A DNA stretch of 64,000 nucleotides from an uncultured Poribacteria bacterium (GCA_951813545.1 OX638352.1:2432835-2496834); one strand, 5' to 3'; shown: positions 15,303-27,460, counted from the first letter of the stretch. The notes: a model not told the origin generated them from the letters alone. Made by a program: numbers and translations.

Positions 15303-15773
15303 ATGATAACAGTCTCGAAAATCGAAAAAATTTCGCCTGACAGTACATTGGAAGTTTGTGCTCGACAGGTAATTGTGAGTTATTTTCGAGAAATGATGTC
15401 CTGCGAGGAGGGTGCCAAGGACGGGACGGATATTAGGTTTGTCCATGATATGCGCGTCGCTTCGCGTCGTTTAAGTGCTGCTATGGACAACTTCGCCGAC
15501 TGCTTTCCAGAGAAACCCTTCAAAAAATACTACAAAAAGGTAAAAGCGATAACTCGAACCATGGGAGCTGTCCGTGATCTGGATGTCCTTATCGCTCGTT
15601 TTCAGAAGGAAATGGTTACGCTGACTGGAGCAGAACAGGCGGACATCCAAGGATTTATCGAACACCTACAGCAAGAACGGGAAGATGCTCGAAAACCGAT
15701 GCTGACGCTCTTTGGGAAACTGGAAGCAGCCGATTTTGAGACCAAATTTTTAGAATTCTTTGTCAGCTTTTAA
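15303..15773 (+). CDS. CHAD-domain protein, half-size
   Basis: The RFVHDMRVASRRLSAAMDNF motif is characteristic of the CHAD domain. 156 aa, ending ...FLEFFVSF. Confidence 0.65.
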   Translation: MITVSKIEKISPDSTLEVCARQVIVSYFREMMSCEEGAKDGTDIRFVHDMRVASRRLSAAMDNFADCFPEKPFKKYYKKVKAITRTMGAVRDLDVLIARFQKEMVTLTGAEQADIQGFIEHLQQEREDARKPMLTLFGKLEAADFETKFLEFFVSF

Positions 15774-15896
15774 TTTATAGACATCTGAACCGCTGCATCC
15801 GTTGTCCTTGCGGGTTTCTGTAGGATTGAGTGAAAAATCGCGAGCGAAACTCGCTCCTATTAGTTCCTATCAACTAAAGCGTGTAGTTCGTAATGT

Positions 15897-16038
15897 AATG
15901 GAGAACGGGTATACGGAGAGAAACTTGAAGGTTTCCAACCCAAGGAAAATTAAAAAATGTAATGGAGAACGGATATACGGAGAGAAACTTGAAGGTTTCC
16001 AACCCACCACACCGAACCGCAAGGAAAATTAAAAAATG
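15897..16038. repeat. Tandem duplication of about 62 bp of the 5' leader, RBS and ATG of the second CHAD gene. The second copy carries a 15-bp insert.
   Basis: TAATGGAGAACGGRTATACGGAGAGAAACTTGAAGGTTTCCAACCCA...AGGAAAATTAAAAAATG occurs twice in tandem at 15897-15960 and 15959-16038. Copy 1 ends ATG-TAA. Copy 2 ends at the ATG of 16036..16545. Confidence 0.7.
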
Positions 16039-16545
16039 GCAAAAGCGCACAAAATCATTGGCGTTGTGCCGAAGCAAAGTTATCATGAGAATGCACGCAT
16101 CATTCTCCCGCAAAAGGTTGAGGAGGTTTACACGTGGGAGCCGTTCATCTGGGATGAAACTCGGCACAAAGAGCTCCACAACATGCGAATTTCGATTAGA
16201 CGCCTCCGATATACGATGGACGTTTTTCGTGCCGCTTATGGGTTTCCGAAAACGTCTTCTAAAGAGGTTTCAGTAAATTACAGTGGGCGTTTCGCTGAAT
16301 TCTTCGCGGTGATACTTGATTTGCAAGAGATACTCGGTGATATTCACGACTCTGATGTCGTCTTGGAAGCCTTAACCGATTATGCAGATCAAGCGGGACG
16401 TGGGACTTTAGCGCAAGGTGTTGCTGCACTCATTGACCGGACGAAGGAGATTCGTAAAGTAGATTACAAAACATTTTTAGAAAAATGGGAGCGGCTATCT
16501 GCAGCAGGCTTCAAACAAGAGTTGCTATCATTTTTGGTATCATAG
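16036..16545 (+). CDS. CHAD-domain protein, half-size paralog
   Basis: HNMRISIRRLRYTMDVF and LGDIHDSDV motifs. 169 aa, ending ...LLSFLVS like the upstream paralog. Confidence 0.65.
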   Translation: MAKAHKIIGVVPKQSYHENARIILPQKVEEVYTWEPFIWDETRHKELHNMRISIRRLRYTMDVFRAAYGFPKTSSKEVSVNYSGRFAEFFAVILDLQEILGDIHDSDVVLEALTDYADQAGRGTLAQGVAALIDRTKEIRKVDYKTFLEKWERLSAAGFKQELLSFLVS

Positions 16546-16597
16546 TTACTAATTGGAAAAGTACGCTCGTGGTGGCGTGCGTAGGGGGATTATTATA

Positions 16598-17572
16598 ATG
16601 AGCACGAATGTTGTCGGCGTAGATATGGGTGGCACTAAGATTCTATCGGCTGTCATTGACTCGGAAGGCAATATCTTAAGTACAGCCAAAGTACCAACCA
16701 AAGCAGATAAAGGTCCATCCATTGTAATTGATCGGATCGCGGACAGTATCCAGAACGCTATTGACAAGTCAGGTGTTGAAGCTGCATCAATTCAGGCTGT
16801 TGGAATTGGAGCACCAGGACCACTTGACCCAGCTACAGGGATTGTTATTTTCGCACCCAACCTCCGTTGGAAGGATGTTCGGCTGAAGAAAGAGTTAGAG
16901 GCGCGCGTCGGCTTTCCGACATTCGTTGACAATGATGTGAATGTTGGGACGCTTGGTGAACACGTGTTCGGTGCTGGGAAAGGTGTTCAGAACGTTGTCG
17001 GAATTTTTGTGGGGACCGGCATTGGTGGCGGAATTATTCTACAAGGTGAGCTTTTCCACGGCGCGAGTAAGACAGCAGGTGAAATCGGGCATATTATTGT
17101 CAAAGCGGGTGGACCCAGATGCGGATGTGGAACTCGTGGCTGTTTAGAGGCAATCGCGAGCCGCACGGCAATGACAAAACAGTTTCAGAAAGCGATTCTG
17201 AAAAGAGGGAAAAAGAGCGTGCTCTCTGAACTCACCGGTGGTGACTTGCGGGCGATCCGGAGTGGGGTGTTGGCGAAAGCGATTCGTGCAGATGATAAGT
17301 TAACGCTAAAAGTTATCAAAAGGACAACAAAATACCTCGGTATTGGCATCGGTTCTATTGTAAATTTCTTGAATCCAGAGATGATTGTGCTTGGCGGTGG
17401 AGTCGTTGAAGCACTGGACGATACATTCTTAGACAGTATCCGCAAGGCTTCGGAGAAGTACGCACTCCCTAATACCTTGAGTGGGGTTCAGATTGTAAGG
17501 GCAAAGTTAGGGGATAACGCTGGTATTCTTGGTGCAGCTGCACTCGCACGGCAGCGACTTGAGGCAGTGTAG
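16598..17572 (+). CDS. ROK-family sugar kinase (glucokinase-like)
   Basis: GGGGAT RBS then ATG at 16598. VGVDMGGTKIL, GIGAPGPLD, and the zinc motif CGCGTRGCLE. Confidence 0.8.
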   Translation: MSTNVVGVDMGGTKILSAVIDSEGNILSTAKVPTKADKGPSIVIDRIADSIQNAIDKSGVEAASIQAVGIGAPGPLDPATGIVIFAPNLRWKDVRLKKELEARVGFPTFVDNDVNVGTLGEHVFGAGKGVQNVVGIFVGTGIGGGIILQGELFHGASKTAGEIGHIIVKAGGPRCGCGTRGCLEAIASRTAMTKQFQKAILKRGKKSVLSELTGGDLRAIRSGVLAKAIRADDKLTLKVIKRTTKYLGIGIGSIVNFLNPEMIVLGGGVVEALDDTFLDSIRKASEKYALPNTLSGVQIVRAKLGDNAGILGAAALARQRLEAV

Positions 17573-17632: not shown

Positions 17633-19312
17633 ATGTTAGTAGATGATAACAGAGAAGAACATCGGATGATGATTTTCGGCAACGATAGCCGCCTTGTTCA
17701 GGATGAGTTAATCGTAGAGAGTAACGCGAAACGGGAAGGAATCTTGGCGCAAAAGGTTCACGCGGATTCCTATACCGTCACGCTGTATGTGTTACTGAAA
17801 GATTACGGTCTTACACCGGTCTTTCGCATCAAGCCGCGCATCCGCTTCCATCGCTCTAACTATGATAATCTCTCTTCAAGTGCACCAATCCGATACAGCC
17901 TTGATGATATCATCCATTTCGCTGAGTTGAAACGTGGTGTTGATTTGACGGAAAAGGTTGACGATGTCAAGCTCGCGGAAATCCTTGGGGACGCGCCTGC
18001 ACTCAAGGATGTGACGGATGATCCAGCGTTGCACCTGGTCTCACAGCGCGACGTATCCCTCCGAAACCCACCTTTTAAAACTAAGACTAAGGTTTTTGGA
18101 CAAAGCGAAGATCAAGGTGTAGAAGAGGGAGGCATCCGTATTGGAACGTTCCTTGATGCGCTTAATCAGCCACAAAACACCGAGCAAATTTTCAAACGGT
18201 TTGCAAAAGGGAGTGAATTCGCACGCGATTTGCGTGAGGCTTTGGCACCCTACGAGGACTTTGAATTTCAATTCGGTCTCTATTCTCGATATGAGCGGCG
18301 GGATTGCGTCTTGGCGAATGGAGACGCTGAAACCAGCGGAAATTACCGGGCAACGTTTGATCCGTGGACGGCGCTCGGGTATATCCGAACCGCTGGCGAT
18401 ACGCAGCAGTTCCAAATCCTAATGCATGAACGCGGGACACGATGGGAACATAAAATTATGTTGGAGCAAATGGATGCTCCAACGCTTGATCGCCTTGCAA
18501 CGGAGATTCCAAGGCTTCGCCGCGAGTATCTAATTGGACGTGTTTTATCCAAAAGCCAAACCGCCTTGACACGCTTGGCTGAACTTCGCCAATCCCAGCT
18601 AAATCTGACAACCGATTTACACACTGGATATACACTCCAACTCGAAATACCTGTCTCTCAAAAACGGTTTTCTGTCATAGAGCACCGCCAAAAATTGCGC
18701 CAGACATTTAACGGGGACGGTGCTTATCGCCTCCATCCATTGAATGGTGAATTTGTTGAGAGACATCATAACATGGCGAAGGGCATCCGAAATGGGATTG
18801 TCTGGACCTTAGATTCTGTAAATCTATCTACAGGACAACCTCCATTAGAGCAAGAAGATGAGGGGATTCTTATCATCAAAACGCCCCATCAAAACAAGTT
18901 CGTCGTCCGTTCCGCCGAAGAGCTTCGTGAACGCCTTCCTAAAAATGGATTTGAGAAATGTTGGAATGAAGCAATTGATATGGGGGGCTATACTGTCCTC
19001 AACCAAATGAGTGGTAGAGTCTATATGGTGAGTTACGGACGAAGAAATACTGGCAGTATCCATGAGGGCAATATTACCAATGAGGATGTCGCGCACTATC
19101 TCTCAATTGAATACCTCGGCATAGATCCTACCCGTGTTGGGGTTTCACGCTTTGGGGTGCCTGCCTATGTACAGCGAAGTTTCTTTGACAGACTTTTCAG
19201 TAGACAACCTGTATCGCCACTCTTTAATCAGTTGATTCAAACCGAAGCACAGGTCCTCGCAGAAATCAAAAGCTTCGCGCGGTATTGTAAAGAGAAGCTG
19301 GAGATTCCATAG
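17633..19312 (+). CDS. Hypothetical 559-aa soluble protein. First gene of the candidate three-gene defence operon.
   Basis: GGAGGG RBS then ATG. Long intact ORF with no recognisable motif. 49-bp gap to the ATPase gene. Confidence 0.55.
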   Translation: MLVDDNREEHRMMIFGNDSRLVQDELIVESNAKREGILAQKVHADSYTVTLYVLLKDYGLTPVFRIKPRIRFHRSNYDNLSSSAPIRYSLDDIIHFAELKRGVDLTEKVDDVKLAEILGDAPALKDVTDDPALHLVSQRDVSLRNPPFKTKTKVFGQSEDQGVEEGGIRIGTFLDALNQPQNTEQIFKRFAKGSEFARDLREALAPYEDFEFQFGLYSRYERRDCVLANGDAETSGNYRATFDPWTALGYIRTAGDTQQFQILMHERGTRWEHKIMLEQMDAPTLDRLATEIPRLRREYLIGRVLSKSQTALTRLAELRQSQLNLTTDLHTGYTLQLEIPVSQKRFSVIEHRQKLRQTFNGDGAYRLHPLNGEFVERHHNMAKGIRNGIVWTLDSVNLSTGQPPLEQEDEGILIIKTPHQNKFVVRSAEELRERLPKNGFEKCWNEAIDMGGYTVLNQMSGRVYMVSYGRRNTGSIHEGNITNEDVAHYLSIEYLGIDPTRVGVSRFGVPAYVQRSFFDRLFSRQPVSPLFNQLIQTEAQVLAEIKSFARYCKEKLEIP

Positions 19313-19360
19313 GAATTCGGATTTTATGTTGGTAAAATTATCTCTGTGAGGTGAAAACTC

Positions 19361-20539
19361 ATGATACGAAGTCTTGAAGTAAAAGGGCTGAACAATCGAG
19401 ATGATGGAAATTTCAATTTTCATTTCCATGAAGACCTGAATATTTTTACTGGCGCAAACGGCTCAGGCAAGACAACGATCCTTAAACTGCTGTGGTATCT
19501 CATCAGTGGACACCTTGAGCAAATCCTTGCTGAAATTCCATTTCATTCCATTGCAATTCAAACTGATCTGTTCGCTTTGAGCATGGTACGAGCTGAACCC
19601 GACCAAGTTACGCTTGATTACAGCTTTAGTGAAGAAGAAGGTGGGTACGAATTTATTATCATTGACACGGAGACAGGAAGAATCTACCGGAAGGATGTGG
19701 ATTGGGTAAATGCCCTTGAGAAGCGGATCACTGAATCGTCCACGGGAAGTCTTTTTTTTCCCACGTTTAGGAGAATTGAAGGTGGTTTTTCAATTGGTTC
19801 CAAAAGTTCGGCAGATGCTGAGGACGTGGCTGTACTAAGATTATTAAGTTCAACGACAGAGAAACTTCTAAATGCGATATCACAACTATCGGAAGATATG
19901 TCTACTGATAGACATAGGTTCATATTTTCAGTTTCAACTATGGATATAATAAAATTACTACCGCAAAAGTCCCTTGATATTTATCAAGAGATCAGCAACC
20001 TTCAATCTCAGGTATTAGAAAATATTTCAAGGGAAATGGAAAATAATCCTGATAAAGACAAAGCTGGTGAGATTCCTAAAAGTGCTTCCTCCGTTCTGGA
20101 TGCTATCCAGCAGGTTGATAAGGAAACAGAGCAGTTGAGGAAGCCGTTTTCTGTGTTGTCTGAGTTGACTCGAAAAATTCTACGATACAACGCAATTCAG
20201 GTTACCGAAAAGTTAGTTCTTGGAGAAACAACTGATGGTATTACCTTTGGAGAAGGAAGAGATGACATTGCAATTGGGGAAATAAATGAGGCAATTTCCT
20301 CCGATAAACTTTCTTCCGGTGAAAAGCAGATGCTCAGTTTTTTGTGTTACAACGCTTTTTACAAGGATACGGCTATCTTCATTGATGAACCTGAGTTAAG
20401 TCTCCATGTGGATTGGCAAAGACTACTTTTACCAACTCTCCTCGATCAAAGCACTGGAAATCAGTTTTTCATTGCAACGCACTCACCTTTCATCTTTTCT
20501 GGGTACCAGCACAAAGAGATTCCACTGAAAAGTGATTGA
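19361..20539 (+). CDS. ABC-type AAA_15/AAA_21 ATPase, OLD/AriA-like
   Basis: Walker A FTGANGSGKTT, ABC signature LSSGEKQ, Walker B IFIDEPELSLH, and H-loop IATHSP. Confidence 0.8.
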   Translation: MIRSLEVKGLNNRDDGNFNFHFHEDLNIFTGANGSGKTTILKLLWYLISGHLEQILAEIPFHSIAIQTDLFALSMVRAEPDQVTLDYSFSEEEGGYEFIIIDTETGRIYRKDVDWVNALEKRITESSTGSLFFPTFRRIEGGFSIGSKSSADAEDVAVLRLLSSTTEKLLNAISQLSEDMSTDRHRFIFSVSTMDIIKLLPQKSLDIYQEISNLQSQVLENISREMENNPDKDKAGEIPKSASSVLDAIQQVDKETEQLRKPFSVLSELTRKILRYNAIQVTEKLVLGETTDGITFGEGRDDIAIGEINEAISSDKLSSGEKQMLSFLCYNAFYKDTAIFIDEPELSLHVDWQRLLLPTLLDQSTGNQFFIATHSPFIFSGYQHKEIPLKSD

Positions 20540-20563
20540 ACGGACAGAGGAGAAGATATCTGA

Positions 20564-21322
20564 ATGTCGTTGCCCGATCCTACCTTAGAGAATTTAGTTG
20601 TTGCTCTGCGCCTCTCTAATAAGCCAAACATTATTGTTGAAGGTAAAGATGATGAAATCATCTATGGGACATTGGTGGAGCGTTTAGGAAGATTTGATGT
20701 AGGTTTTTTCAGCGCGGGTTCCAAAGACACTCTACTTCATCTTTATAAGGAACTTTCTGAATATGAAAATGTGGGGGACTTCAGGCATGCCCCTGTTACT
20801 TTTATCGCTGACCGTGATATGTGGTTATTCAGAGGCATTCCAGATCAATATGACGACATTATTTGCACAGAAGGTTATAGCATTGAGAACGATTTGTATT
20901 CATACGCCAAGTTAAAGGATCGAATAGGAAATAAGGCAGAATATGACCAAACTTTAGACTCAATTAGTATGTGGTTTGCCTATAAAGTGGAAGAATATTT
21001 AGAGAAGAACCCACCAGAAAAAACCTTTGAATCTATCCGAGATGAGGAACATGTGGATGTGGCGTATCATTTAAATCGAGTTGTTCCACCTGAAAAGACT
21101 ACTCTGGCAGCTGATTTGGAGTTTCTTCCTTCAGATCATGAAAGGGTTAAAGCCGTCAGGAGCGCATATCATCTTCAACTTCGAGGAAAACTTCTTTTTG
21201 AGTTACTCGTCCGTTTTTTAAATAAACCTAAGCAGGGATTTACCAATGCTACTGTTAGTTATCATGGCTTGTACAATGATGCAATTACGGTTCCTGAGTC
21301 AGATCGACTAGAAAGAAAATGA
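20564..21322 (+). CDS. DUF4435/Toprim-like nuclease, AriB-like
   Basis: N-terminal IIVEGKDDEIIYG has the Toprim E-G-x-x-D motif, with Glu at residue 26. FIADRDMW is a candidate Toprim DxD. 25-bp gap from the ATPase gene. Confidence 0.7.
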   Translation: MSLPDPTLENLVVALRLSNKPNIIVEGKDDEIIYGTLVERLGRFDVGFFSAGSKDTLLHLYKELSEYENVGDFRHAPVTFIADRDMWLFRGIPDQYDDIICTEGYSIENDLYSYAKLKDRIGNKAEYDQTLDSISMWFAYKVEEYLEKNPPEKTFESIRDEEHVDVAYHLNRVVPPEKTTLAADLEFLPSDHERVKAVRSAYHLQLRGKLLFELLVRFLNKPKQGFTNATVSYHGLYNDAITVPESDRLERK

Positions 21323-21421
21323 AGTACAAGAGAAACTGAATGAACAAAAACAAAAAATCGCATCACGAAAATCGACTTCTTGATACATTCTAAGAATAAG
21401 GTTAGAAGGAGACACGCGAAG

Positions 21422-22249
21422 ATGCCAAACCGCAGAAAAGTCCTTATCACCGGAGCATCGGGCTATATCGCCGGACGGATGCTCCCGGAATTTCGCCAAC
21501 GTTACGAACTCGTGCTGCTGGACGTGAAGACCACAAATCGGCAGGGAGAAGAGGTCGAAGGCATTCAGATTGCTGAACTCACCGACCCTGACCGGAACGC
21601 ATACAGACACCATTTTGAAGGCATCGATGCGGTCGTTCACTGTGCCTTTAAGGGGGGCAGTTTTGAGAACGAGCTTGCGAACGTTCAGATGGCATACAAC
21701 CTCTATCAAACCTGCGTTGAAACCGATGTCCGACGTGTTGTCGTCTGTAGTTCTAACCACGCCGCCGACTATTACGAGCGGCTCATCTGGGCAGATAAGT
21801 GGGATGTGGTGACCCCAGAGATGCGTCCATTGTCCGATAACTTCTACGGGTGGGCGAAAGAGGCGTATGAGCACCTTGGCTTTGTCTTTGCGACTGGACA
21901 CGTTGACGGGAAGAAGCTACAGAATGTGCAGTTACGTATTGGTGGACCGCGGGAAACGGATATGGCGAATTCTTCAGCAGATGATTTGAAGGCGATGCAC
22001 CGTGGACTTGGCGCGTATTTGAGCGTCCGAGATCAGATCCAACTTTTCGTCAAGAGCATTGAGACGGAAAGTATAGAGGACGAAAACGGAATTCCATTTC
22101 AGATTTTCTACGGCATCAGTGACAACTCGCATAAGTTCTGGAGTATCGCCAACGCACGGAAGGTAATAGGCTATGCACCGGAGGACGACAGCCAACTCCG
22201 TTTTGCCGACCGGTTGGCGGAATTGTTAAAACAGGCGAAAGGGACATAG
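21422..22249 (+). CDS. NAD-dependent epimerase/dehydratase family protein
   Basis: AGGAGAC RBS. Rossmann VLITGASGYIAGRM. SDR-like body. Confidence 0.75.
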   Translation: MPNRRKVLITGASGYIAGRMLPEFRQRYELVLLDVKTTNRQGEEVEGIQIAELTDPDRNAYRHHFEGIDAVVHCAFKGGSFENELANVQMAYNLYQTCVETDVRRVVVCSSNHAADYYERLIWADKWDVVTPEMRPLSDNFYGWAKEAYEHLGFVFATGHVDGKKLQNVQLRIGGPRETDMANSSADDLKAMHRGLGAYLSVRDQIQLFVKSIETESIEDENGIPFQIFYGISDNSHKFWSIANARKVIGYAPEDDSQLRFADRLAELLKQAKGT

Positions 22250-24480: not shown

Positions 24481-25125
24481 TCACAATAACGTTGAAATAA
24501 TAATACCAAATAACCAAATCGCAACTGCCCAAAAACATGCCTGACTTTTCTTCACCTTTGCAAAAACCGCGATGGCGATTGTCAAAATTATGATATACCA
24601 TAAACTCAAGATATTAATATGGCCCAGGAACACTCTCAGTTTTACATTGTCAAGAGAGCCTGCCAAGTTGTGAAGGCCCGGAATCATTTGCATATCTGCT
24701 ACCATCTCAATTTCTTCAACCTGTCTGAAAACTATGAGCAGTGCCGAATTGAACAATTTTATTAGAATTTGAATCAATGAAATATGTATAAGACTCGCAA
24801 AGATGTGTTTAAATTTAACCGCCTCATTTATCTGAAAAATTCGAGCGAATCCAGTGAGTAGCGCGCTCAGTACAACAATCCAGAGAATCTCTCCTGCGAG
24901 ATTTGCTATCAGAACACCTATTATTATAGGGCCAACCTCGCCATCAGAGGGCATACTTTTTACAATTAGATGTTCCTCGAATGGAGCAGTTCCCCATGAC
25001 AGGAAAGCAGAAACGAGAAAAAGAAGCGTGAACGCTAAACCCCACCTAGGTTCTGATTTTAGACGAGCAAACAATACGCCCGGTGTTGTAATCAAGTATT
25101 CAAGGTTTTTCCAACTATCTCCCAT
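24481..25125 (-). CDS. Hypothetical integral membrane protein, possibly Yip1-like
   Basis: 214-aa ORF with 5 hydrophobic helices. Weak family assignment. Confidence 0.5.
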   Translation of the reverse strand: MGDSWKNLEYLITTPGVLFARLKSEPRWGLAFTLLFLVSAFLSWGTAPFEEHLIVKSMPSDGEVGPIIIGVLIANLAGEILWIVVLSALLTGFARIFQINEAVKFKHIFASLIHISLIQILIKLFNSALLIVFRQVEEIEMVADMQMIPGLHNLAGSLDNVKLRVFLGHINILSLWYIIILTIAIAVFAKVKKSQACFWAVAIWLFGIIISTLL

Positions 25126-26830: not shown

Positions 26831-27460
26831 TTATTTATCCTTTCCTTTGTGAAACTCAGAGAATTCCAAGTCTCGACCTTCAGCGTTCGCTTCTTCCCAA
26901 GTTTCCGCCCAGGTTTTCAGCTGCTTCTTTGCCCGAGACAACCGATTTCTTACGGAAGACGCAGAGACTTCGCATATTTCGGCAATCTCTTCATAAGACT
27001 TGCCTGCAAGTTGCAGGAGAAAGATATTTTGCTCTAATTTAGGCAATTGCGCAATTGCCTTGAAGAGTTTTTTTCGTCTCTCTTCGTCCAACGTCCAGTC
27101 TTCCATTATCCGATGTGAGGTAACAGTCGCAGCTTCCACCTTAGCCTCGGAAACGTTAGTGAGGGATTCCATCTGGATACGTCTCTGATTGTTTCTGTGC
27201 CATCCTGCGATAAGCTGGCTGGCGATGCGAAACATCCAGTTCAAAACTTTCTCAGGTTCTTGAAGCGTTTCTAAATGTTCCTTTGCTTTGAGGAAGGTGT
27301 CATCGGTAAGTTCTTCAGCGTAGTGCCAGTCGCCTATTTTCCCTGTGATAAATTCACAGAGGCGGTGCTTATACAGCGCATAAAGTTCGTCAAAAGCGCG
27401 TTCATCTCCAGATAAGATTTGACGAACAAGTCTTGCGTCTCGCCTTTGTTCATCGGTCAC
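26831..27460 (-). CDS. ECF-type RNA polymerase sigma factor
   Basis: Sigma-70 region 2 (DDTFLKAKEHL...WMFRIASQLIAGWHRNNQRR) and region 4 (LAGKSYEEIAEICEVSASSVRNRLSRAKKQL). Confidence 0.85.
   Translation of the reverse strand: MTDEQRRDARLVRQILSGDERAFDELYALYKHRLCEFITGKIGDWHYAEELTDDTFLKAKEHLETLQEPEKVLNWMFRIASQLIAGWHRNNQRRIQMESLTNVSEAKVEAATVTSHRIMEDWTLDEERRKKLFKAIAQLPKLEQNIFLLQLAGKSYEEIAEICEVSASSVRNRLSRAKKQLKTWAETWEEANAEGRDLEFSEFHKGKDK

Follow-up and report, generated by a model that had tools for sequence, protein, structure and literature searches.

In the PARIS system an ABC ATPase, AriA, is encoded next to a DUF4435/Toprim nuclease, AriB, and the published MacSyFinder rule for its recognition calls for adjacent genes, one matching AAA_15 with at least 32 bits or AAA_21 with at least 27 bits and the other matching DUF4435 with at least 27 bits (PMC9122126). 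In the AriB of E. coli the two-metal Toprim site is built from the acidic residues E26, D30, D88, E90 and E122 (PMC11464382). According to the published PARIS trees, in which 11 clades are distinguished, ariA and ariB co-evolve and swapping between them is rare. A second family has to be considered for the gene which precedes the pair described here, namely the triphosphate tunnel metalloenzymes (TTMs). A link between CHAD proteins, TTMs and polyphosphate is documented (10.1101/567040; PMC4641920), and the polymerase Vtc4p is set apart from the hydrolytic TTMs by the replacement of an acidic patch with basic residues (PMC4641920).

Here we analysed a stretch of 64,000 nucleotides (the window) from an uncultured Poribacteria bacterium (GCA_951813545.1 OX638352.1:2432835-2496834), in which a sequence-only reading had proposed a defence operon of three genes (g1, g2 and g3). 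It is concluded, with a probability of roughly 0.85, that g2 and g3 form a self-contained, compact and divergent two-gene PARIS pair in a hypervariable slot, and that g1 is a vertically inherited neighbour with a predicted TTM fold.

Results

Table 1. Features of the locus (positions counted from the first nucleotide of the window)
Feature	Position	Strand	Description
CHAD gene 1	15303-15773	+	upstream conserved context of g1; Pfam CHAD
CHAD gene 2	16036-16545	+	upstream conserved context of g1; Pfam CHAD
ROK glucokinase	16553-17572	+	upstream conserved context of g1; Pfam ROK 266.7 bits
g1	17633-19312	+	559 aa; conserved, Poribacteria-specific, predicted N-terminal TTM/VTC-like fold; neighbour, not component
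g1-g2 leader	19313-19360	+	48 nt, g1 stop to g2 start; left edge of variable segment
g2	19361-20539	+	392 aa; AriA-like ABC ATPase; PARIS-type sensor/sequestering subunit by homology
g3	20564-21322	+	252 aa; AriB-like DUF4435/Toprim nuclease; C-terminally truncated allele
8-bp deletion junction	21310-21311	+	TTTTCTCG kept in sister alleles; frameshifts g3
Out-of-frame g3 tail relic	21311-21383	+	ends at ancestral stop 21381-21383
SDR/epimerase-family gene	21422-22249	+	downstream core flank; right edge of variable slot; Pfam Epimerase/NAD_binding_10

The three ORFs proved to be real and co-oriented, and each start is preceded by a ribosome-binding site of the GGAGG/GAGG type as had been claimed; the gaps between them are 48 nt and 24 nt instead of the 49 and 25 given earlier. 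Tight spacing, which had been taken as an argument for a single transcript, and common orientation are likewise genuine but not specific to these genes: the gap between the ROK gene and g1 is 60 nt, and one uninterrupted co-directional run extends from the chorismate synthase gene to the SDR gene (probable start, ATG at 21422). A promoter and terminator scan of this run gave no match on the plus strand. The g1-g2 leader contains TGGTAAAAT, a TGnTATAAT-like box and putative promoter, and a GAGG ribosome-binding site; at many occupied loci the leader is conserved, while the empty loci differ from the first base past the g1 stop. Since in Poribacteria the pair always stands directly after g1 and no plus-strand promoter was detected between them, g1 may be co-transcribed with g2-g3.

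The assignment of g2 and g3 to the AriA-like ATPases and the AriB-like DUF4435/Toprim proteins is borne out by the best PADLOC models, by Pfam and by the published rule alike, with 75.8 bits for AAA_15, 82.5 bits for AAA_21 and 33.6 bits for DUF4435, the last modestly over its threshold, in two co-oriented genes separated by 24 nt. AriA is the top PADLOC model of g2 (96.4 bits) and also its best PDB relative (8ux9_B/8v45_A, E = 3.7e-19), and the expected motifs are all found (Walker A GANGSGKTT, signature LSSGEKQ, Walker B IDEPE, H-loop ATHSP). Compared with E. coli AriA the protein is shorter by about 70 residues, and its alignment is limited to the N- and C-terminal ATPase lobes; because of this shorter length and the unaligned middle, its oligomeric architecture and trigger-sensing pores may differ from those of AriA.

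For g3 the top PADLOC model is AriB. The motifs E26-G27-x-x-D30 and D83-R84-D85 are present as previously read, and E26, D30, D83, D85 and E108, invariant across 23 and 35 homologues, align with the acidic motifs of AriB. A phmmer search with g3 alone did not reach AriB; its top match, eIF2 alpha (E = 0.001), looked spurious and was rejected, and the profile and fold searches gave AriB. The confident structural model of g3 matches AriB over the whole predicted fold, i.e. the Toprim part and the C-terminal helical domain.

The g3 allele of the window has been shortened by a frameshift, as was revealed by DNA alignment with the alleles of L031, L054, L033 and L049. The 8-bp deletion leads to a premature stop and to the loss of about 23 C-terminal residues, among them a near-invariant Leu and the terminal helix, leaving 252 aa where the sister alleles have about 275. 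In the alternative frame the relic of the tail reads KENEVQEKLNEQKQKIASRKSTS, and the equivalent part of L031 is ...EKVVEEKLDKQNEKIALQTSTS. The frameshift is recent, and the copy may be weakened or inactive. It is possible, though we consider it rather doubtful, that the pair here is a decaying relic as a whole, with an inactive nuclease and a locus which is defenceless or retains the ATPase only. Besides the lost residues themselves, such decay is suggested by the requirement of E. coli AriB for E285, near the C-terminus of its about 308 residues, in dimerisation and defence (PMC11464382), by the advanced decay of the same cassette in the nearest species, L007, whose slot contains a remnant, and by the frequent losses of the cassette across the Poribacteria slot. 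Against it stand the catalytic residues of g3, which are all intact in the fold comparison together with the 207 residues alignable to AriB, the intact g2 ORF beside the frameshifted gene, the naturally short tails of some other alleles (L082, L038) and the recurrence of the truncated form on 5 contigs.

It is improbable that the pair represents another family of ABC ATPases and Toprim proteins, whether OLD/Gabija-like, Septu/retron PtuA-like, AbiL or an AbiEii-type toxin-antitoxin. The PADLOC models PtuA, mad3, NsnB and AbiLi do match g2 (E from 1e-21 to 1e-14), as do GajA and PtuA in the PDB (about 1e-6), the Pfam description of AAA_21 names the AbiEii toxin, and g3 shows a faint OLD-like Toprim match (E = 0.2); nevertheless AriA comes first by wide margins in both PADLOC and the PDB, and the nuclease is a DUF4435 protein of its own, without the ATPase fusion of OLD/GajA.

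The proposal that g1 is the third component of the system was not upheld. This gene lies between the ROK glucokinase and SDR genes in each of the 74 Poribacteria species compared, of which 47 have the pair or a vestige of it; in the other 27 the pair is absent, g1 being intact, highly conserved and unchanged in position. Relatives of the pair outside Poribacteria were found on a Lichenicola plasmid, in an Acinetobacter record and on 12 viral contigs: in all 14 the g2-like gene is directly upstream of the g3-like one, and none has g1. These modules without g1, together with the overlap of the g2 stop and the g3 start in most Poribacteria alleles, argue for the autonomy of the two genes. The g1 family is limited to 29 clusters, and in the contexts of its distant members the pair was never a neighbour; the relatives at 57% and 44% identity gave no information on context, their contigs being about 2 kb long.

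The history of g1 is also different from that of the pair. Among Poribacteria its identity ranges from 71 to 94%, like that of the core flanks (75-97% for the SDR gene across species), whereas the pair ranges from 33 to 91%; Spearman's rho is 0.72 for g1 against the SDR flank, 0.30 against g2 and 0.15 against g3. The divergence of the pair is uncoupled from g1, which tracks the core flanks. The lower GC content of g2 and g3, earlier estimated by eye, was confirmed against the 44 other ORFs of the window (0.484 +/- 0.032): with 0.399 (z = -2.6) and 0.393 (z = -2.8), respectively, they are about 9 GC points down and compositionally foreign, and g1 is host-like (0.473, z = -0.3). Other low-GC ORFs occur downstream and encode a Yip1 membrane protein and an ECF sigma factor; there are no defence genes among them.

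The synteny of g1 and the pair within Poribacteria reflects a fixed insertion slot beside a core gene, and g1 is in substance a mere neighbour. A three-component system with g1 as sensor, regulator or second-messenger/polyphosphate-producing enzyme working with the pair is highly improbable in view of the 27 species and 14 outside modules in which one occurs without the other, the divergence and GC content of g1, its distant relatives without such neighbours, and the empty sites, where divergence begins straight after its stop codon.

The slot itself is extremely dynamic. It contains the full pair in 39 species, is empty in 24 and has partial or other content in 10; in L069 it holds an IS. At least 18 gains or losses of the pair are required on the g1 tree of the 74 species. 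At the empty loci the SDR gene comes directly after g1, in most of them with a gap of 8-137 nt. Neither target-site duplications nor repeats were seen by eye at the slot edges, and no tRNA genes as integration targets were found within the window. The alleles of the two genes occur in different combinations: g2 cluster 3 is paired with g3 clusters 2, 3, 5 and 6; L010 and L049 are 98% identical in g1, 92% in g2 and 51% in g3; and L012 and L017 are 92%, 58% and 91% identical, respectively. In the mosaic of L010 and L049 the breakpoint could be placed in the DNA about 200 bp ahead of the g2 stop. We therefore have a hotspot of PARIS with reassortment between the alleles of nuclease and ATPase, and the published co-evolution with rare swapping does not hold among the Poribacteria alleles.

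The statement that g1 has no recognisable domain holds true at the sequence level but not at the level of the fold. The protein matched nothing in Pfam, NCBIfam, PADLOC or PHROGs; in Pfam neither the whole protein nor either half searched separately gave a match even at E <= 10, CYTH (PF01928) and VTC (PF09359) included, and neither phmmer nor the family profile found a chain in the PDB. The confident structural model, however, is that of a TTM with a topologically closed, hydrophilic, 8-stranded beta-tunnel, whose closest matches are the tunnel domains of Vtc4, Vtc3 and Vtc2, i.e. VTC polyphosphate polymerases, ahead of the hydrolases. The predicted strands carry invariant residues at alternating positions (R7xE9xR11, K67xR69xR71, E98xK100, K149xK151xK153, Y220xR222xD224, R239xT241xD243, R270xE272xK274), and their content of invariant Lys and Arg is unusually high. 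The first strand carries RxExR in place of ExExK, so that a basic residue replaces the first Glu of the hydrolases.

Upstream of g1, the two CHAD genes scored 82.8 and 43.2 bits with Pfam CHAD, and the ROK gene passed the generic ROK glucokinase model (TIGR00744, 274 bits against a cutoff of 260); polyphosphate glucokinase was rejected as an annotation, the score being below the cutoff of that model. The order CHAD-CHAD-ROK-g1 is common to L001-L006. The CHAD genes beside g1 do not count as independent evidence, given the synteny of all 80 loci, and CHAD neighbours are absent beside two distant g1 relatives.

Discussion

By homology with the E. coli system, g2-g3 would be an abortive-infection, anti-phage system. 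The g2 ATPase is expected to oligomerise and to keep the g3 Toprim nuclease inactive; a phage-encoded trigger would bind g2, and in the presence of ATP and the trigger g3 would be released. The freed nuclease could then dimerise and cleave host tRNA, by which translation and phage growth would be halted. The complex, the sensing of a trigger and the tRNA target are all carried over from E. coli PARIS.

In this article a compact, divergent PARIS lineage is described from an uncultivated phylum of sponge symbionts, together with a chromosomal slot among core genes which accommodates hardly anything but PARIS cassettes, and where the rate of their gain, loss, duplication and recombination is very high. 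The unit exchanged consists of the nuclease and the last about 70 codons of the ATPase, which suggests that this part of AriA has to match AriB. It should be emphasized that tight spacing and co-orientation beside a defence pair did not mean a third component; it was the comparison of presence and absence across species that settled the question of g1, and this may serve as a caution in annotation.

As to g1 itself, it is best described as a vertically inherited, lineage-specific TTM, whose substrate is most probably inorganic tri- or polyphosphate or a nucleotide triphosphate and which is to be grouped with the CHAD-CHAD-glucokinase genes upstream of it. The Vtc matches ahead of the hydrolases, the basic first strand and the Lys/Arg-rich strands are in line with a polymerase, although we regard it as unlikely that g1 is a prokaryotic VTC-type counterpart making polyphosphate with the two CHAD proteins and the glucokinase; the literature, when searched, offered nothing usable as direct proof that Poribacteria contain polyphosphate. 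As an orphan triphosphate-tunnel family visible at the fold level only, g1 may be relevant to the way in which sponge symbionts handle phosphate or polyphosphate.

Compared with known TTMs, the predicted g1 shares the closed eight-stranded beta-tunnel of Vtc4/Vtc2 (3g3q, 3g3o) and YgiF (5a61), and its invariant basic and acidic strand residues may face inward. YgiF of E. coli is a CYTH-CHAD tripolyphosphatase, and g1 is likewise associated with CHAD, through adjacent genes as in polyphosphate operons. In contrast to yeast Vtc4/Vtc2, g1 has neither an SPX nor a membrane domain, it has no detectable sequence similarity to the Pfam CYTH or VTC models or to any PDB chain, and its family consists of Poribacteria and a few relatives.

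The pair differs from OLD and Gabija GajA, where the ABC ATPase is fused to the Toprim domain, in having separate polypeptides, and its sequence and fold scores with these proteins are far below those with AriA and AriB. With the B185/P4-like PARIS of E. coli (Rousset 2022 PMC9122126; Burman 2024 PMC11464382; PDB 8ux9, 8v45-8v49) it shares the two-gene cassette, in which the AAA_15/21 ABC ATPase comes first and the DUF4435 Toprim protein second, the motifs of the ATPase, a strongly similar C-terminal ATPase lobe (54.5 bits over 68 residues), the location in a variable hotspot and the occurrence also on phage and plasmid DNA. The Poribacteria proteins are more compact (ATPase 392 versus 464 aa, nuclease 252-275 versus 308-316 aa), and the middle of the ATPase, with the coiled-coil, insertions and pore regions of AriA, could not be aligned by sequence. 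The setting is also different, a chromosomal position between core genes of an uncultivated sponge symbiont, and the reshuffling of ATPase and nuclease alleles seen here qualifies the published view of ariA and ariB as co-evolving, rarely swapped partners.

Gene positions and composition

The three open reading frames under study, g1, g2 (the AriA-like ABC ATPase gene) and g3 (the AriB-like DUF4435/Toprim nuclease gene), lie exactly where the sequence-only reading had placed them, each start is preceded by a GGAGG/GAGG-type ribosome binding site, and the motifs cited for g2 and g3 were found in both sequences. The spacing is tight as described, but the gaps measure 48 and 24 nt, not 49 and 25. 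The low GC content claimed for the ATPase and nuclease genes was borne out as well: compared with the 44 other ORFs of the window (0.484 +/- 0.032) it is 0.399 in g2 (z = -2.6) and 0.393 in g3 (z = -2.8), while g1 resembles the host (0.473, z = -0.3). The window also holds a low-GC ORF (~0.39-0.40) for a Yip1-domain membrane protein with an ECF sigma factor nearby, neither of them defence-related.

Features of the window and of the corresponding loci (L handles) of other Poribacteria species
Feature	Position	Strand	Remark
CHAD and ROK genes	15303-17572		two CHAD genes and ROK glucokinase, directly upstream of g1
CHAD ORF, first part	15303-15773		profile positions 5-128
CHAD ORF, second part	16036-16545		profile positions 167-199
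g1	17633-19312	+	559 aa
g2	19361-20539	+	392 aa
g3	20564-21322	+	252 aa
Deletion in g3	between 21310 and 21311		8 bp
Old g3 stop	21381-21383		ancestral frame
"Epimerase" ORF	21380-22249		start probably ATG 21422, not TTG 21380; 275 aa as in other species
Yip1-domain ORF; ECF sigma factor nearby	24481-25125; 26831-27460	-; -	
Deletion remnant, nearest species	L007:7680-8060		g2 N-terminus joined to g2 C-terminus
Recombination breakpoint	L010:8700-9713		relative to L049
Three-gene variant	L065:8319-12102; L070:8023-12218		short ATPase and two DUF4435-like genes
IS element in place of the pair	L069:7921-9240		DDE_Tnp_1 transposase, 80 bits
Two tandem ATPase+DUF4435 pairs	L077:7662-11605		first ATPase ORF overlaps g1 end

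The ATPase and nuclease genes as a PARIS pair

Together g2 and g3 are a new, divergent member of PARIS, a known and common system present in 5.2% of genomes (PMC9122126). The published operational rule asks for neighbouring genes with AAA_15 of at least 32 bits or AAA_21 of at least 27 bits, and DUF4435 of at least 27 bits (PMC9122126); since g2 scored 82.5 bits against AAA_21 and 75.8 against AAA_15, and g3 33.6 bits against DUF4435 (cutoff 27), the pair is classed as PARIS. The best PADLOC model for g2 was AriA (96.4 bits), and AriB (35.9 bits) was the sole model matched by g3. AriA was also the closest solved structure to g2 (8ux9_B/8v45_A, E = 3.7e-19), with PtuA and GajA at ~1e-6. As a single-sequence query against solved structures g3 did not reach AriB; a profile built from 23 Poribacteria g3 alleles matched AriB chains only (E = 0.004-0.01), in an alignment pairing VEGxxD, DRD/DRE and TxGxSxEN. 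The five acidic Toprim residues of AriB are E26, D30, D88, E90 and E122, and E26A kills defence (PMC11464382); their counterparts in g3, all invariant, are E26, D30, D83, D85 and E108. The proposed AriA-like and AriB-like pairing was thus upheld by Pfam, PADLOC, structure matches and Toprim residues. Variable positions cluster between the ATPase lobes in g2 and fall outside the catalytic blocks in g3. Compared with E. coli AriA, g2 is ~70 residues shorter, and the alignment is confined to the ATPase lobes.

What the analysis shows of the pair is its domain content, its folds and catalytic residues, its autonomy as two genes, its foreign composition and the dynamics of its locus. By analogy with E. 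coli PARIS, the ATPase oligomer would sequester the nuclease, a phage trigger and ATP would set it free, and the nuclease dimer would cut tRNA, leading to growth arrest.

In the window allele, an 8-bp deletion relative to sister alleles (~275 aa) shifts the frame of g3, so that the protein stops 23 residues early, and the ancestral frame is still legible to the old stop. The identical 252-aa protein recurs on 5 contigs, so the deletion is no one-off assembly error. Dimerisation and defence by E. coli AriB depend on a residue near its C-terminus (PMC11464382), so the window allele may be impaired.

Relation of g1 to the pair

The earlier proposal of a three-component PARIS variant including g1 is not supported. 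More than 260 close homologues of g1 were found, every one from Candidatus Poribacteria, and the frame of ROK glucokinase, g1, variable slot and SDR gene is kept across 80 species-representative genomes (identity 71-94% for g1, 72-92% for ROK, 75-97% for the SDR gene). The slot holds a full ATPase+DUF4435 pair in 39 species and partial or other content in 10; in 24 it is empty, with a g1-SDR gap of mostly 8-137 nt and the sequence departing at the first base past the g1 stop codon. A pair or its vestige occurs in 47 of the 74 informative genomes, window included, and g1 stands without one in the remaining 27. On the g1 tree this pattern takes at least 18 state changes, close to random shuffles (22.1 +/- 2.0). 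The pair is much more diverged than its flanks (g2 37-79%, g3 33-91% identity), and its divergence is uncoupled from that of g1 (rho 0.30 for g2, 0.15 for g3), with which the SDR gene co-varies (rho 0.72).

The nearest relatives of the pair outside Poribacteria are all two-gene modules without g1: one lies on a Lichenicola plasmid, next to MazEF and RelE modules, another in an Acinetobacter record, and 12 are on viral contigs; their g2 matches are full-length, at 32-36% identity. The g1 family comprises 29 representative clusters out of 1.84 billion, and the distant homologues within it, at 38% and 32% identity, have unrelated housekeeping genes as neighbours. Because of these contexts, and of the pairs found elsewhere without it, g1 is a mere neighbour; the three-gene interpretation lacks support, as g1 is conserved with the flanks, the slot content varies and outside pairs have two genes.

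Tight spacing, formerly an argument for a single g1-g2-g3 transcript, is not peculiar to these genes: the ROK-g1 gap is likewise only 60 nt, and all genes of the array that begins with chorismate synthase and ends with the SDR gene point the same way. A + strand scan of this array for promoter and terminator consensus gave zero matches. The 48-nt leader between g1 and g2 carries a TGGTAAAAT box, a candidate promoter element, and TGnTATAAT-like extended -10 boxes in the longer (100-130 nt) g1-g2 spacers of L053, L055, L080 and L081 suggest an own promoter for the pair in those genomes.

A putative tunnel enzyme beside the slot

The statement that g1 has no recognisable domain holds for sequence methods, and sequence-based searches for its identity found nothing; however, its confident AF2 model (pLDDT 84.5, pTM 0.88) matches the tunnel chains of the yeast polyphosphate polymerase VTC. 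In Foldseek 13 VTC chains lead (E 4e-6 to 1e-4), followed by the E. coli CYTH-CHAD tripolyphosphatase YgiF (2e-3). Invariant residues alternate on the predicted strands (R7xE9xR11, K67xR69xR71, E98xK100, K149xK151xK153, Y220xR222xD224, R239xT241xD243, R270xE272xK274), an invariance extending to relatives of 31-57% identity and the pattern expected of a tunnel lining. The beta-1 motif is RxExR, and there is an additional C-terminal domain of ~270 aa. According to the best reading of the model, g1 would be a triphosphate tunnel metalloenzyme (TTM) acting on tri- or polyphosphate, by hydrolysis or synthesis; it defines an orphan family detectable at fold level only, with eukaryotic VTC polyphosphate polymerases nearest.

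CHAD domains bind polyphosphate and are fused to TTMs or found within polyphosphate operons (10.1101/567040; PMC4641920). The link of g1 to its CHAD neighbours is weakened, because the Poribacteria loci are all syntenic and distant relatives have no such neighbours. The CHAD signal is divided between two stand-alone ORFs, also in other Poribacteria. The top NCBIfam match of the "epimerase" ORF was the Azf-type NAD-dependent glucose-6-phosphate dehydrogenase, at 98.6 bits far under the cutoff of 400; this identity, if right, would suit the glucokinase neighbour.

The slot as a PARIS hotspot

Other slots hold tandem pairs, an IS element or a remnant in which the first g3 codons are joined to the SDR gene leader. 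The variant of two species, where an ATPase of 327-331 aa is followed by a DUF4435/OLD-Toprim-like protein of 269-400 aa and a 620-652 aa protein with a DUF4435-like N-terminus, may represent a true three-component system related to PARIS.

The allele classes of the two genes assort freely: g3 clusters 2, 3, 5 and 6 are all found together with g2 cluster 3. Identity between L010 and L049 is 98% in g1, 92% in g2 and 51% in g3; between L012 and L017 it is 92%, 58% and 91%. The L010 and L049 DNA is 96-100% identical until ~200 bp ahead of the g2 stop, within the conserved C-terminal ATPase lobe, then 36-66% through g3, and recovers in the SDR gene to 80-94%, for the most part 87-94%; from the position of this drop, the exchanged unit is the nuclease gene together with the last ~70 ATPase codons. 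The added interest of the locus is moderate, and lies in a PARIS-specific hotspot with modular reassortment and an orphan VTC-like tunnel protein adjoining it. The genes ariA and ariB are said not to be frequently swapped at deep-clade level (PMC11464382), whereas the Poribacteria alleles of g2 and g3 do reassort, the published statement having concerned deep clades.
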